NCBI GenBank assembly: GCA_965248755.1
Contig: OZ252149.1
Span: forward strand, 2,720,001-2,784,000
DNA from: Candidatus Latescibacterota bacterium
Lineage (GTDB): Bacteria; Latescibacterota; CBDEFO01
DNA: 64,000 bases
Direction of reading: 5' to 3'
The position numbers are program-made. This document shows, piece after piece, positions 12,001 through 24,000 of this stretch. Positions within the stretch are counted from its first letter, which is position 1, and every line of letters begins with the position of its first letter.

Positions 12001-15000
12001 TGGTGGTCAAGCACGTTGGAAGGGGAAGTGGCTGGGCTCGTTCTCCGAGAACTTACGAGAAGTCCTTTCAGGAGTCCGGGCTTCAGGAATTCGTGGATCC
12101 GGGGGTATATAAGGTGGTAGTCGATACAGACTTAGATCGGGATGACCCGATCGTGATTGAAGATGTGGTTATAACGGCGGGACAGCGAAAGTATATCAGA
12201 ATTCCTGTGGGGAGATTCAGCGTAATCGTCACACAGATTTCCGGCTCCGGAGACACTCAAACGTCTCGGAAGGTCCAGATGCCCTTTACAGTTTTGGATT
12301 ACGGTTTGGACACGGTCCTTATGACAAGGGGGATGACATCCACACAGGTTAAATACTTTGTCGTTCCTGTGGGTGCTTATAGGGTCAAATTAGAACGCCG
12401 GGGACCCCGTGGTACGGACTCACAGCAGCATATCAAGGACCTGGCCATCAAATTCGGACAGGTGTGGCCTGTTCAGATCGAATTAGGAGAAACTACCGCA
12501 CAACCTGAAGAGGGACAGTAGCAGCAAACCAGGGTGCTAAATTCTATTTATGGAGATGAAATGAAAAGGCTTGAGGTCGTACTATTAATTGCGCTCCTTG
12601 TCTCGGTTATCTCCTCAAATTTGTACGCCGGACCGAGAGCCACTGTGGTGGACAGATTAGGAAACAGATTCGAGGTCTCCAATCTGAAGTACTACGGAAG
12701 GCAGAGCTTCGACTTCATAACAAGGGATGGAAGGAAGAGATTGAAGTTTGAGAAGATGAAAAAGATACAGTTTATGGGTGAAAGGAACGATGAGGAGCAG
12801 ACCGTGGTTATTACTCTTCCGGACGGAAAGACCATCTCCGCTACGAAGTTTGTGGGGAGTTCGGACAGATATCAAGGTGGGGGCTCAGGCGCTCGGGCAC
12901 TCGGATCTGGTATGTACCTTTCGGGTCAGACAAAGTTAGGGAAATTCGAACTGAATCTGAAGGATACTAAAGAGATCATTATCCATCACTACCAATTGGT
13001 AAGGAAATGTCCGGTGGACAACAGAATCTTCGAACAGAAAGGGTACAGATTTTGCCCATATCATGGAGAAAGGCTGGAGGAGATAGAGCAGAAAGAAGGT
13101 AAAGCAAAGTCTTCTGAGGTTGAGTCGAAGTCAGATAACAAGTGAACGCTGTGCGCAAAAAAACCTTGACAAATCACTCTGCTTGTTATATTTTATAGCG
13201 TTAAACATGTATCGTGCCGTAGCGAAGTGAAGTTTGGCTTGTGCCTTGATCTCCCAGAATACAGACTATACGGGGTCTGTAGGAGATGGCAAGGTCTGGG
13301 AGAGCATGGGTAAACCTGTTCCAGTTCGAATGAGAGAGTTAATATACCTGTAAGTAATTAGTTGTCGGAAAGACCATCACCCAAAAGGGCCTCCAGAAAG
13401 CCGGTGTGGGCACGTCGCGCGTTGCTGGAAACCGTCTTTCCAGTAGGTATTAAGTTACAGCAACCCGCAAATGGGCGGCGTGGTCACTTTGCTTGGCAGG
13501 TAGGAAGCCACGAAGTGGTCGGAGAACTTGCTTGGGGGAAAAACGTATCAACTTCACAGCGAGGGGTATCTACGATGAAGCTTATAAGCTATCTTAAGTG
13601 GACAGTGGTTCTAGCAATGCCTTTGGGTCTCTTCGGATGCGGCTATCGTTACTATGCGGGTCCCTTGGAACCACTGGATGAGTCTCGCCAGACCTCAGGA
13701 TCTCAGGTGTTCGACGATGGAACAGTTACCTATGCTATGGACAGACTTGAAATTAGTCTGAGACCTATGACTGACGAGGAGTTGAATAGACAATTTGCGT
13801 CTGATTCTCAAAGTGGAGCCAGATCCACTAATCCCTATACATTCGGCAACTCGCAATACTGGGCTTTAAGAGAGACTCCTCAGAGGTTTACGGTAATGGA
13901 TCTCAGAGTTAAGAACTACGAGTTTGCCAAGATGCAGCTGGACCCTTCAAACATATTCATGACTACAGGAAACGGCAGGGAATACTCTTCTCTCAGCCTG
14001 CAGCAATTGGATACATACTATAGGATTTATGCTACAGGGTATAGAGGGAACGAGTTTGCCGAGTATGACCAAAGAAGGGATATCTTGGACAGAACTATGT
14101 TCCCTCCAGATCCCATCTTCAGCGGCCTGGAGGAGCAGGGATACGTGATCTTTGAGAGGCTTCACGACGACGTAAAGGATATCAAAGTCCTTATTAAGGA
14201 TATAGTTTTGCGGTTCGATTTCAGGGGAGAACCAGCGGAGACAGCGGACGTGGAGTTTTTCTTCCAAAGGGAGACAGGTAAGGTCTACAAGGACGGCAGA
14301 AAGGTTGTAAAGAATTGATGAGAGGTTATTTATATGACCTGTTGAATGAATCAAGAGGGAATTTTCATCTTTAAAGGCAGAAAGGAGTGAATCCCTATGT
14401 ACAGGTTGCTAAGCATTATGTTCGTGACCACATTATTTGTGGCATTTGGATATGGTCAGGTGTACGGTTTTTTAGATGCTGGGACACAGGCCAGGTCTAT
14501 GGCGATGGGAGGTAGTTTTGTGGCGGTGGCGGACGATCAGGATGCGATTTTTTTGAATCCGTCGGGTCTTGATCAGATAGAAGGGAAGGTCGCTTCGTAT
14601 ACGAATGTGAGTTTACTGTTGACAGGAGTGGAGGGAGATAATTTGGGTCAGCACATACTGACTTACGTTCATCCTCTTGGTGGTAATGTGGGTACATTGG
14701 GTTTTGGGTATCAGCGGGTGGGGAGTGACAGTTTTAATGAGAATGGATTTACGGCAAGTTGGGGGAAGGAGTTTGGCAGGGGTATTAGCCTTGGTTTGGG
14801 GTTGAGTTATTTGTGGTGGAGTGTGGGGGACATACCGCCTGATGGAGGTAGGGCGGATCCGTTGTCTGGGGAGAGCAGTGGGAATATAGGAGTAGACATA
14901 GGTGGATTATGGAGGAGTCCTTGGGATTTTAGTTTGGGGTTATTTTTGAAGGACATAAATGAACCGGATATATCCAAGGATGGGGGTAATATAGCTGGGC

Positions 15001-21000: not shown

Positions 21001-24000
21001 GTTAGCCAATTCACGCGGTAGAAAAGAGCAGAAAGGGGTAGATTGCTATGTTTAGATTTTTTGGGATAGTCATTGTGGTAGCATTATGTTTGGGGTATGG
21101 GTCTGGTCAGGTGTACGGTTTTTTAGATGCTGGGACACAGGCCAGGTCTATGGCGATGGGAGGTAGTTTTGTGGCGGTGGCAGACGATCAGGATGCGATT
21201 TTTTTGAATCCGTCGGGTCTTGATCAGATAGAAGGTAAGGTCGTTTCGTATACGAATGTGAGTTTACTTTTGACGGGGGTTGAGGGAGATGATTTGGGTC
21301 AGCACATACTGACTTACGTTCAGCCTCTTGGTGGTAGTGGGGGTACATTGGGTTTTGGGTATCAGCGGGTGGGGAGTGACAATTTTAATGAGAATGGATT
21401 TACGGCAAGTTGGGGGAAGGAGTTTGGCAGGGGTATTAGCCTTGGTTTGGGGTTGAGTTATTTGTGGTGGAGTGTTGGGGACATACCGCCTGATGAAGGT
21501 AGGGCTGATCCGTTGTCTGGGGAGAGCAGTGGTAATATGGGAGTAGATGTAGGGGGTTTATGGAGGAGTCCTTGGGATTTTAGTTTGGGGTTATTTTTGA
21601 AGGGCATAAATAAACCGGATATATCCTGGGGAGAGGGGGCAGTAACAAAGGAAGATGGCACTATAGAGGTACAGGATGGTGCAGGCAAGTTGCCGTTTGA
21701 CATACATTTTGGTGGTAGTTATCGTCTTGAGAGGGGTTTATTGAGTGTAGATTATGTAGTAATGGATGTAGGTGGGGAGGGAGATACCGACACGAGGTTA
21801 TTTTTTGGGGGTGAGGCAGAGTTGGTAGAGGGGTTTAGTCTGCGTGCGGGAGGCAATAGGATATTTGAGGAGGGGAGCAAGGGTGGAGGCAATGTGGGGT
21901 TGGGATATGAGTTTGCCAATGGGTTAGATTTTGATTATAGTTACAATATTCCTTTAGATGCGGTGGAGACTGAAGGCAGTCACCGATTCAGCTTCGGATA
22001 TAAATTCTAGTATCCTATCTAATAGGCACGGGATACAGATAGATGCCCCCGGGGAATTGGAGTCCTCGGGGGTTTTTTGCTTCCTCTCATTACTAGTTAC
22101 AGCGCCCTTTAAGTTCATTGTAAACTGTGACCGCATTTAAAGGGGAAATTTCAGCCTTGACAGGAGAAGAACATTGTATTATATTTAAGTAAATAATTAT
22201 TTATCCTATATAATAATTATTATAAACGTAAAAGCTGGCGAGGCTACATGGGCGGCAAACACATCAGACAAAGACAGGTCATTGAACTTGTGCAGAAAGG
22301 GGAGATGAGGACGCAGGGGCAGATCGTGTCTGCGGTAAGGGAATGCGGCTGCAAGGTTAGTCAGTCCACACTTTCCAAAGATATAAAGGAGTTGGGATTA
22401 GTCAAGGTACCTACGGTAGATGGAAAATTTCGATACAGTCTACCGGAAGAGAGCACTCCTTTCCCCAAACGGCAAAAGATTTTGGAAAGAGAGATGATGG
22501 ACTCCCTTGTGGATTTCGACAATGCCAAGAATATGCTTGTTCTCAAGACCACCCCAGGAAATGCTTCAGGACTTGCGGCGGCCATAGATAAGATGGATTG
22601 GCATGAAGTTGTGGGAACACTTGCCGGCGACGATGTTATACTGATCATCTCCAAAACTGCGGATCAGACCCAGAGAATAATGGATCGAATACGTGAAATT
22701 ATCCACCGTTAGAGGTAAAAATGATTAGGTTAGGAATTGTCGGGGCGACAGGATATACAGGGGTAGAACTCTTCAAAATAACCTCCAGACACCCTGAAGC
22801 AGAAGTTGTATTTGTAGCATCTTCAGAAGAGACCTCGGGGAACTTGCTGTCGGAGGTATATCCGGGCGTAAAGGGATCCATCGAAATGGAACTTCTGTCT
22901 TTAGAAGATGCCCTCAGAAGGGATGTGGACGTAGTTTTTCTATGTCTTCCGGCGGGTAAATCTATGTCCGCTGCTCCGTCGTTCTTGGACTCTGGCGTCA
23001 AGGTAGTGGATATCGGAACTGACTTCAGGATGAGGACGCCCGAAGGACACTTGCGATGGTACGATTTCGACCATACCGCACCCCATCTGCTGCCCAAGAC
23101 GATCTGGGGACTGCCAGAGATAAATCGAGAAGCTATCCGGGGGGCCTCGTTAGTGTCGAACCCCGGCTGTTATCCGACTGCAGCACTTCTGGCTTTGGCT
23201 CCCCTTCTGGAAAGAGACCTGATCTGTACAGAGGGCATAATCATAGACTCCAAGTCCGGAATCTCCGGTGCAGGCAGGAAGCTCTCCTTAAGGACGCACT
23301 TTATCGAAGTCAACGAGAACGTAGCTCCCTACAATATCGGGCGCTCTCACAGACACACCGGAGAGATCGAGCAGGAGTTAAGCAAAATAGCAGGAAAAGA
23401 ATGCAAAGTTGTCTTCACTCCTCAGACGGTTCCTATGGACAGGGGGATCCTGTCAAATGTCTATGTGAGACTTAAAGAGGATATATCGACCCAGGATGCA
23501 ACGCAAATATATAAGGAAAGATATGCGGACGAGCCGTTCATAAGGATTGCAGAGGATTACCTGCCGCAGACCAAGTTCACGTCTTACACCAACTATTGTG
23601 ATATAACTGTCCATAAAGTTGAGGAGACCCACGTGCTGCTCATAATCTCCGCTTTGGATAACCTGATAAAGGGAGCGGCTGGACAAGCTGTGCAGAACAT
23701 GAACATAATGTTCGACACAGAAGAAACTTTAGGATTGTTTGAAAGTTCTCCACTTGCAGCATCTGAGGTCCCAGGATAGTGATCGAAGGACTGATAAAAA
23801 AAGCAGATGTACTTATTGAAGCACTGCCCTATATCCGGGCGTTCAGAGACAAGATCGTAGTCATCAAATATGGAGGCAGTGTTGTAACTTCCGAGGGAGA
23901 GGTGGACACTGTCCTTGAAGATGTAGTCTTTATGGAGACTGTGGGGATGAAGCCCGTAATCGTACACGGGGGCTCTAAGGCCATAAGCCGCAGGATGGTT

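Follow-up and report, generated by a model that had tools for sequence, protein, structure and literature searches.

The operon analysed here is a new variant of the Ton/Tol-type motors, which most likely powers lineage-specific giant pores and surface sugar-binding proteins and not the whole type IX secretion system. Taken as a whole, the data are best explained by a complete proton motor of the Ton/Tol type serving a giant-barrel outer-membrane module, an explanation in which we place roughly even confidence. The DUF4159 protein shows the architecture of TonB, with an anchor carrying an (S/A)xxxH motif, a disordered linker and a folded head, and hence probably completes the motor together with ExbB and ExbD.

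The window comprises a stretch of 64,000 nucleotides on contig OZ252149.1 of Candidatus Latescibacterota bacterium (GCA_965248755.1). As claimed in the first-pass annotation, six open reading frames form a barrel-TPR-ExbB-ExbD-DUF4159-barrel operon on one strand (Table 1); the intergenic gaps measure 26-84 nt, and the family matches follow the gene order PorV-like barrel, TPR, MotA/ExbB, ExbD, DUF4159 and PorV-like barrel. The second barrel, counted as an operon member before, is present here but follows DUF4159 in 0/35 other orthologous loci; at this position it was seen in this lineage only. Its identity to copy 1 amounts to 95.7% on the DNA level (848/886 nt), and unlinked barrel copies were homogenised by gene conversion in 8/8 genomes checked. 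Upstream, the conserved lipoprotein gene located 3' of a promoter-like site is probably the first gene of the operon. The lipoprotein itself showed no Pfam or other family match, while some paralogues comprise a TonB_C/AgmX-like tail (AgmX/GltG-like C-terminal domain, E 8.5e-18). The TolB-like protein is loosely associated with the block. A short dispersed repeat is present in the 380-nt leader; no riboswitch was found there, and no Rfam match was obtained at E<=1 across positions 8000-23000. Horizontal acquisition of the block was considered and rejected, its GC content of about 45-53% being similar to that of the flanks.

Table 1. Features of the operon and its upstream region (positions in the 64,000-nt window, forward strand)
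Feature	Position	Strand	Remarks
TolB-like PD40 beta-propeller protein, lipoprotein-like signal	10513..11676	+	5' of block in 2/35 orthologous loci
Uncharacterised lipoprotein	11808..12521	+	5' of block in 6/35 orthologous loci
Uncharacterised exported protein	12534..13145	+	accompanies the lipoprotein 11808..12521 in the same 6 loci
Sigma-70-like promoter consensus, 10/12 match	13166..13194	+	consensus match only
Conserved lipoprotein, 247 aa, lipobox Cys	13575..14318	+	immediately 5' of barrel in 11 orthologous loci
PorV/PorQ-like (FadL-superfamily) outer-membrane barrel, copy 1	14397..15338	+	under curated cut-offs
TPR protein, 1,072 aa	15381..18599	+	N-terminal hydrophobic segment, no lipobox
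ExbB/TolQ-family motor subunit	18630..19289	+	pore Thr conserved
ExbD/TolR-family motor subunit	19374..19796	+	transmembrane Asp conserved; start set at 19374
DUF4159 protein, 390 aa, putative TonB-like arm	19849..21021	+	TM helix, linker, DUF4159 head
PorV-like barrel, copy 2	21048..22010	+	direct repeat of copy 1; signal peptide differs
Strong intrinsic-terminator-like hairpin, 11 pairs, 8 G-C	22045..22073	+	closes operon, ahead of argR

Orthologous loci were chosen by a match to the DUF4159 gene (n=35), and the 32 that extend to the TPR gene all showed the order TPR-ExbB-ExbD-DUF4159, as described before. The identity of the TPR orthologues, given previously as 42-47%, was about 41-47%. The reported barrel or giant barrel 5' of the TPR gene was likewise found: of the 32 loci, 23 comprise a PorV-like barrel and three a giant barrel at this point, and six reach the contig end. 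Accordingly, the PorV-like barrel heads the block in 23/26 loci with a visible upstream gene. In family f5, the giant barrel and not the PorV-like barrel lies immediately 5' of the TPR gene (3/3 loci).

A second group consists of 24 paralogous loci, in which the general cassette order runs from lectin cargo over the PorV-like barrel, the giant barrel and the TPR gene to ExbBD. Here a giant barrel was observed in 23 loci, ExbB/ExbD in 16, an anchored DUF4159 protein in 13, a PorV-like barrel in 13 and SprA in none, and 11 of the 24 had no PorV-like barrel in view. The giant barrel is thus a more constant partner of the motor (23/24) than the PorV-like barrel (13/24). These cassettes comprise two ExbD genes compared to one in the window, and six of the 13 with DUF4159 lack ExbB/ExbD on the same stretch retrieved. 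In one genome (G059), a paralogous giant barrel-TPR-DUF4159 row is adjoined by ExbB-ExbD-ExbD on the opposite strand. Domains of the F5/8 lectin and CHU_C types are present in the cargo proteins; some cassettes are flanked by DUF6785 membrane proteins, and SurA-like foldases occur in many.

Both motor subunits (PF01618 and PF02472) are present with their motor residues. The pore threonines T134, T167 and T168 of ExbB and the transmembrane Asp of ExbD are invariant in 28/28 alignment rows. The top-scoring models were TolQ and TolR, both under cut-off, and the TPR protein scored on the CpoB/YbgF and BamD models. Judging from its sequence, the latter is probably a scaffold anchored in the inner membrane; in 28 orthologues, no Cys occurs within aa 1-40. 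These matches, the TolB-like propeller upstream, the foldases and a weak BamG match in 10/17 barrel rows could also point to a machine akin to Tol or accessory to BAM, which would maintain the outer membrane or help to fold giant barrels and cargo. Such a role is distinctly unlikely, as a complete tolQ-R-A-B-pal-cpoB-like operon is located elsewhere in the genome, the block comprises neither Pal nor a TolA C-terminal domain, PorV_fam scores far above BamG on the barrels, and the motor was lost in a sister genome.

In the three other ExbB/TolQ-ExbD operons of the genome, the slot taken here by DUF4159 is occupied by TonB or TolA. The operon had been described as having no TonB gene. This holds for the domain, since no operon protein matched PF03544 (TonB_C), but is misleading for the architecture: the DUF4159 protein is likely a TonB-like transducer that was overlooked. 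It shows a TM helix at aa 3-29 with AxxxH at aa 15-19, a linker of about 120 residues (aa ~37-155) that is strongly conserved in the alignment, and a DUF4159 head (PF13709, aa ~157-380) of glutamine-amidotransferase-like fold. The AlphaFold model comprises the helix and the folded head, with a pLDDT mostly below 50 over aa 37-155 (54-62 and 74-155 under 50). A conserved alternating hydrophobic stretch follows the helix at aa 39-45, at which a "motor box" strand was not modelled by AlphaFold. The (S/A)xxxH motif occupies the aligned position in 49/69 rows, and the rows with E or L at this site carry it on an additional upstream helix in 19/19 cases. Overall, 68/69 rows comprise the motif, the remaining row being incomplete. 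As background, it occurs in 10/480 proteins of the same genome with a single N-terminal helix, including TolA and two anchored DUF4159 proteins. A complex prediction with three ExbB, two ExbD and arm residues 1-90 scored 0.00 twice, with controls not folded, and speaks neither for nor against docking.

An anchored periplasmic enzyme or binding protein without force transfer, with ExbBD using a TonB encoded elsewhere, would agree with the fold of the head, with the location, distant from any motor, of three further DUF4159 proteins in the same genome (one soluble, two anchored paralogues), and with nine of the 16 ExbB/ExbD-bearing paralogous cassettes showing no DUF4159 gene in view. However, the 390-aa protein contains no Cys at all that could serve as the catalytic nucleophile of a class I glutamine amidotransferase. 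Together with the retained His motif, the conserved linker and the location in the TonB slot in 32/32 loci (which were chosen by the DUF4159 gene itself), this makes such a protein, be it an enzyme or a binding protein, very unlikely. The best fold match of the head was Hoch_4089 (PDB 4i66; Z 22.5, rmsd 1.9, 185 aligned); IFT52 gave Z 8.8, rmsd 3.7 and 171 aligned. The head resembles the GIFT-type domains of the IFT52 N-terminus and an OST subunit as well as Hoch_4089, which consists of one domain only, lacks anchor and linker and has no known function; this likeness of fold shows no function.

Compared to the Ton system (ExbB-ExbD-TonB, SusCD), the motor subunits, gene order, anchor motif and arm architecture are alike, and barrels and surface lectin-like proteins are probable partners here as well. 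The arm differs in missing TonB_C, the partner barrels are not PF00593, and the 1,072-aa TPR scaffold is additional. Also close are the vWA force transducers of unknown function, described as a three-part arm encoded behind TPR-tolQ-tolR genes, with a His-motif helix, a linker that is disordered over about 100 residues and a globular non-TonB head (Williams-Jones et al., Mol Biol Evol 2025; PMC12204202). All of these traits recur here, including the TPR and tolQ/tolR-like neighbours. The head, however, is PF13709 instead of vWA, the window operon comprises one ExbD, and the arm is linked to PorV-like and giant barrels. The main text and one supplement of PMC12204202 do not mention DUF4159. In the literature searched, with supplements covered for that paper only, nothing was found on DUF4159 together with ExbD or on this operon, and DUF4159 was mentioned in the Pfam paper only. 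DUF4159 hereby gains a testable role: it would head a TonB-like arm of a third type, the first two being TonB/TolA and the vWA transducers.

The window barrels match the PorV/PorQ family NF033709 over their full length with 68.2 and 66.5 bits, below the cut-off of 90 bits, and reach about 21 bits for TIGR03519 (PorP/SprF, cut-off 90.55 bits). PorV_fam matches the full length of 17/17 barrel rows, and the best solved structure was PorV (6h3i, E 0.03). Type IX carriers of the PorP/SprF kind are encoded directly after a type B cargo gene (PMC12618676), an order also observed in 13/13 paralogous cassettes having a PorV-like barrel, which follows a type-B-CTD-like cargo gene. In the window and most orthologous loci the barrel does not directly follow such a gene, as in most f12 loci, which have no cargo gene directly 5' of it. 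Further differences to the known carriers are the scores under all curated cut-offs, the location of true PorV and PorU genes elsewhere in the genome, and the missing Cys tail through which SprF and PorG are coupled to the track (PMC12635249): the mature window barrels contain no Cys, and 17/17 rows end with a barrel strand.

Based on the barrel at the head of 23/26 loci, the cargo-barrel order of the paralogous cassettes and the lack of a GldL match above cut-off in 121 genomes (searched without positive control), it could be assumed that the motor pulls the PorV-like barrel directly and extracts carrier and cargo from SprA, for type-B-tailed cargo only. This is quite improbable in view of the f5 loci, the 11 paralogous loci without such a barrel in view, the missing Cys tail and the f12 loci.

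The more probable partner is the giant barrel. Members of about 900 aa (E<=2e-77) were found in 47/47 genomes with an orthologous arm (E<=1e-80; 120 genomes searched), a count from related and hence not independent genomes. The window's genome has four giant-barrel genes, all distant from the operon. The model comprises a large beta-barrel with the N-terminal 140 aa not resolved, and fold searches gave generic large barrels only (best SlpA, Z 14.7, rmsd 8.8, 395 aligned). No match to any TonB-dependent transporter family was obtained. Genomes with giant barrels also retain ordinary TonB-dependent transporters. As to a possible replacement of such transporters by giant barrels, f12 has both among the best 12 candidates scored per genome. 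An assignment to a known family failed, as window-type members showed no Pfam or NCBIfam match. In the Atlas their neighbours are unnamed, the nearest named cluster being DUF6029 at 0.89, a lead only. The arm is thereby linked to outer-membrane barrels of a family not described before, as well as to type IX-like carrier and cargo genes.

The first-pass annotation had tied the motor to a type IX system without PorL. The genetic linkage of ExbBD to a PorV-like barrel stands, whereas a substitution of PorL/PorM does not: the motor is not a general energiser of type IX secretion, since SprA occurs in four families in which the operon was not found, 0/21 SprA loci have the motor nearby, and the sister kept SprA. 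As had been pointed out before, SprA is present in families lacking the operon, namely in 49/49 genomes of f4, f7, f13 and f14 (120 genomes), in which the long TPR (best 6 candidates per genome scored), the giant barrel and the anchored DUF4159 protein were all absent from the matches. In total, SprA was found in 116/121 genomes compared to 48/121 for the orthologous arm, and ExbB, ExbD, DUF4159, TPR or PorV-like barrel genes were near none of the 21 SprA loci. The presence of SprA, PorU, PorV-like and PorQ-like genes in the window's genome would suit an operon replacing PorL/PorM/PorK/PorN throughout the phylum, as would the results for PorL/PorM/PorN, with GldL over cut-off in 0/121 genomes, GldN in 0/61 and GldM in 0/1, all from searches without positive control. 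Given the distribution, this proposal is largely refuted and hardly credible. The weak PorW/SprE match of the TPR protein noted before proved unspecific (NF052312, 139.5 bits summed over repeats, cut-off 250), and its identity as PorW/SprE was ruled out, as a different TPR gene matches better (95 vs 42 bits, both below 250). In the literature searched, nothing links Latescibacter to type IX secretion, and with SprA nearly throughout, PorL not found and the motor not general, the question of its power source here is sharpened.

In the preferred explanation, a motor serving the giant-barrel module, ExbB and ExbD would form the proton channel, the (S/A)xxxH helix of the DUF4159 protein in TonB's place would dock onto ExbB, and a strand following it would contact ExbD. 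Gene order, motor residues, arm architecture and co-occurrence were observed, whereas we infer all physical contacts. The linker would cross the periplasm, the head would act as a non-catalytic binding module, and the TPR protein as a membrane-anchored scaffold. The output would be a module in which giant barrels and the lipoprotein are joined by lectin-like surface proteins, whose C-terminal tails are type-B-like and which the PorV-like barrel would carry or anchor; in this analysis, the set was confined to some families of Latescibacterota. Most likely, the motor would energise gating or release at these giant barrels and thereby the capture and uptake of lectin ligands, following a SusCD-like logic. 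Several observations speak against this explanation: the sister genome lost the motor but kept giant barrels, part of the paralogous cassettes show ExbB/ExbD without DUF4159 or the reverse, the giant-barrel genes of the window's genome are distant from the operon, the motor-box strand was not modelled, and the giant barrel matches no TonB-dependent transporter family, of which these genomes keep ordinary members. The direction of transport is a matter of inference as well, with uptake a tentative possibility and release or assembly of cargo unlikely. A second, type IX-derived export and display route driven by the Ton-type motor is improbable. There, type-B-tailed cargo would use the giant barrel as a docking pore or alternative translocon and be carried by the PorV-like barrel, and the arm, the TPR protein and the lipoprotein, a "split TonB" considering the TonB_C-like tail of some paralogues, would free loaded carriers. 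If true, the job of PorLM-PorKN would be done by unrelated parts.

The Agl-Glt machinery of Myxococcus combines an ExbBD-type motor, a TonB-like arm, TPR scaffolds, barrels and adhesins. The same classes of parts, together with the AgmX/GltG-like domain of the lipoprotein paralogues, could suggest a surface-motility engine, and gliding has been raised for vWA arms (PMC12204202). This is very improbable: none of the window's proteins could be assigned to a Glt or Agl family, flagellar genes and two MotAB pairs are present in the genome, and the occurrence of several cassettes in one genome, with a different lectin cargo in each, fits substrate specificity better than a single engine.

In the sister genome G002, the operon was not recovered, in agreement with the earlier observation, and the four inner genes from TPR to DUF4159 are missing outright. 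Retained are SprA, the lipoprotein, a single PorV-like barrel and four giant barrels, all of full length. Apparently, the two barrel copies recombined and the genes between them were lost; this loss may be recent or compensated by cross-talk with other ExbBD pairs. G002 hence represents a natural knockout of the motor. Contigs from the sequencing runs gave no joint spanning the module, and in run X4 the module showed about half the depth of its flanks, which is a hint only.

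All six open reading frames of the first-pass annotation were found on the forward strand, with Pfam and NCBIfam assignments to TPR repeats, MotA/ExbB, ExbD and DUF4159 (residues 178-376 of a 390-aa protein), while both barrels showed a full-length but sub-threshold match to PorV_fam. Intergenic gaps comprise 26-84 nt. Based on a promoter-like site and a conserved lipoprotein gene, the data suggest that the operon starts one gene earlier than annotated, at the lipoprotein. The short repeat in the leader recurs in weak form about a dozen times across the genome and has no Rfam match.

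Features of the operon and of related loci (window positions unless marked as contig)
Feature	Position	Remark
Promoter-like site	13166	upstream of lipoprotein gene
Leader repeat	13470-13540
Conserved lipoprotein gene	13575-14318 (+)	directly upstream of barrel copy 1 block
Barrel copy 1	14397-15338 (+)
TPR gene	15381-18599 (+)
ExbB	18630-19289 (+)
ExbD	19374-19796 (+)	start at 19374
DUF4159 protein	19849-21021 (+)
Barrel copy 2	21048-22010 (+)
Strong terminator	22045	3' of operon
Barrel copies 3 and 4 (L073)	contig 3003100-3007257	75-82% aa; elsewhere in genome
Anchored-type DUF4159 pair (L071)	contig 1054871-1060165
TPR row with TonB (L072)	contig 1374340-1381309
Solitary ExbB/MotA-family gene	contig 36242-36751	169 aa, after alaS, no partner
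(T/S)WGx(I/L/V)K ORFs, examples	contig 2989397-2994320, 1461415-1464303, 2151315	also L032, L036, L038-L040
Sister locus (L087)	G002:C8:1738000-1746000

Orthologues of the DUF4159 protein (E<=1e-80) were found in 47 of 120 other genomes, distributed over the families f5 (5/6), f8 (2/3), f9 (1/1), f10 (3/3) and f12 (36/41). Around such matches 35 loci were fetched, in which DUF4159 is thus present by construction; the order TPR-ExbB-ExbD-DUF4159, previously proposed to be conserved, was kept in all 32 loci reaching the TPR gene. The proposed upstream barrel was PorV-like in 23 and a giant barrel of ~880 aa in three (all f5), while the remaining six end with the contig. The second barrel after DUF4159 was confirmed for the window and occurred in none of the 35 loci.

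Although the operon had been described as lacking TonB, the DUF4159 protein probably fills this place, judging from its architecture and a histidine motif. Its model comprises a transmembrane helix (residues 3-29), a low-confidence linker to about residue 155 and a folded head. Of 69 rows, 49 showed the motif (S/A)xxxH at the aligned position, while 15 had Glu and four Leu there; since these 19 rows all carry the motif in an additional helix upstream, the total amounts to 68 of 69, the last row being truncated. Among 480 comparable proteins encoded in the genome, just 10 showed such a motif, including TolA, the DUF4159 arm and one paralogue. In the genome's other three ExbB/TolQ-ExbD operons, TonB or TolA occupies the position of the arm. 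The ExbD Asp and the ExbB threonines were invariant (28/28 rows). The best fold match of the head was Hoch_4089 (4i66; Z 22.5, rmsd 1.9, 185 aligned), with weaker matches to glutamine-amidotransferase-like and IFT52-type domains; since the protein contains no Cys, the head is read as a probable binding module. Force transducers of like architecture are described in passages of PMC12204202, but with a vWA head instead of DUF4159, which is mentioned neither in the main text nor in one searched supplement of that paper. Altogether, the operon is a real, conserved variant of the Ton/Tol-type motors with a DUF4159-headed arm, apparently unpublished.

Some genomes showed up to 20 DUF4159 matches. 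The L071 pair, located away from any motor, carries an extra C-terminal domain; one protein contains SxxxH, the other has no N-terminus and adjoins a transposase-like ORF, presumably of IS1380 type. The L072 row (long TPR, 547-aa outer-membrane-like protein, ExbB, ExbD) follows the plan of the operon, but ends with a canonical TonB.

The operon had also been considered as a motor of type IX secretion (T9SS), and its distribution as well as the SprA neighbourhoods speak against a general role of this kind. The genome encodes SprA, PorU (scoring above its cut-off) and PorV-like and PorQ-like proteins, each located far away from the operon. In searches for which no positive control matched, nothing over cut-off was found for GldL in 121 genomes, nor for GldN in 61 genomes or GldM in the window's genome. 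SprA was present in 116 of 121 genomes and, in agreement with the first-pass annotation, in families in which the operon was not found (49/49 genomes of f4, f7, f13 and f14). These 49 genomes showed neither a giant barrel (E<=1e-20) nor, among six candidates scored per genome, a long TPR (E<=1e-40), and only weak DUF4159 matches (best E 1e-21). Within the fetched stretch of 21 SprA loci (L079, L113-L132), no motor gene, TPR, DUF4159 or PorV-like barrel was found; downstream of sprA, 14 loci have a member of a pilM-like gene family and 12 a small conserved ORF, which we take to be ComEA-like; divergent lptF/G-like genes lie upstream. An assignment of the TPR protein to PorW/SprE was ruled out, as 28 orthologues lack a lipobox, CpoB/BamD models score higher and another gene matches PorW better. 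According to passages of PMC12635249, a Cys tail couples SprF and PorG to the track, whereas the PorV-like barrel has no such tail. The module goes with giant barrels and with T9SS-like genes for carriers and cargo, not with SprA.

Giant barrels (E<=2e-77) were found in all 47 genomes with an orthologous arm. Two genomes (G059, G085) comprised neither a close giant barrel nor the orthologous arm, three (G002, G081, G112) close giant barrels without the arm, and two (G028, G075) fragments of the block. The giant protein, without any family match, is modelled as a large beta-barrel of about 24-26 strands (counted from the strand list), its N-terminal 140 aa having no resolved fold. Among 24 paralogous loci (20 hand-picked from weaker TPR matches, three obtained via DUF4159, one via ExbB), 23 contained a giant barrel, 16 ExbB/ExbD, 13 an anchored DUF4159, 13 a PorV-like barrel and none SprA, although these counts are non-independent since many rows are close kin. 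In all 13 loci with a PorV-like barrel, a cargo gene immediately precedes it and a giant barrel immediately follows; cargo followed by barrel is also the order known for type B substrates and their carriers (passages of PMC12618676). The cargo bears CHU_C/FlgD tails, in many cases together with F5/8 lectin domains, and several cassettes are flanked by SurA-like foldases and DUF6785 membrane proteins. DUF4159 was not seen in 9 of 16 motor cassettes, and 6 of the 13 cassettes with DUF4159 showed no motor within that stretch, which speaks against a fixed unit. At their C-terminus, 24 ORFs, nearly all exported-looking and often adjoining giant barrels, carry the short pattern (T/S)WGx(I/L/V)K, possibly a sorting signal; in f12 such a protein usually sits just upstream of the operon's lipoprotein.

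The ExbB-ExbD family conducts protons. By analogy with TonB and TolA, the arm would dock via its His helix, to be pulled or turned. The TPR scaffold may guide the DUF4159 head, which would hand force to the outer-membrane module, perhaps via the lipoprotein, since some of its paralogues end in a TonB_C/AgmX-like domain. Longer paralogues (~400 aa) were found at L070:17728-18999, L069, L103, L105-L107 and L111; that of L070 carries this domain and suggests a 'split TonB', while that of L105 had no Pfam match. The likeliest output would be gating or release at giant barrels, with the PorV-like barrel holding lectin-like proteins at the surface. A live alternative is that the motor extracts the carrier directly from SprA for a type-B-like cargo subset, this extraction being the energy-requiring step in Bacteroidota (passages of PMC10994853). 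Output at giant barrels is still preferred.

As a direct repeat, barrel copies 1 and 2 share 848 of 886 aligned nt over their mature portion but differ in the signal peptide. Since barrel sequence flanks the inner block in contigs of related strains from two other studies, and the depth in sequencing run X5 was twofold for the barrel contig (41.8 versus 19.8 for the block), the arrangement is real and no assembly artefact. In the sister genome G002 (97% DNA identity), the stretches matching window 6001-15338 and 21082-25900 share a single barrel gene, and TPR-ExbB-ExbD-DUF4159 is gone. This single barrel is chimeric, following copy 1 at the 5' flank and over most of the first 700 nt, then copy 2 through the 3' flank, as would be expected for a natural deletion in which the two repeats recombined; assembly collapse may also produce a single barrel. 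The earlier failure to recover the block in the sister is settled by its absence there, the best ExbB matches (29-41% identical) being the other motors. G002 retains SprA and four full-length giant barrels, which counts against an essential role of the motor and against a strict need of giant barrels for it.

An unlinked second barrel copy in f12 matched the operon copy at 95-100% DNA over 886-1,014 nt and was closer to it than to the operon copy of any other genome (8/8 genomes checked; L213-L220 against L031-L035, L039, L040, L054). Since the gene diverges by as much as ~40% from one genome to another, and the second copy has the same neighbours in six genomes spanning four genera, these neighbours being only ~44-77% identical between genomes, the near-identity within genomes points to gene conversion, comparable to that of tufA/tufB. 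Such homogenisation suggests a need for high dosage, which would fit an abundant carrier or anchor. Copies 3 and 4 sit among transposase-like ORFs, with five tail-bearing proteins and a lipoprotein paralogous to that at window 11808 close by.
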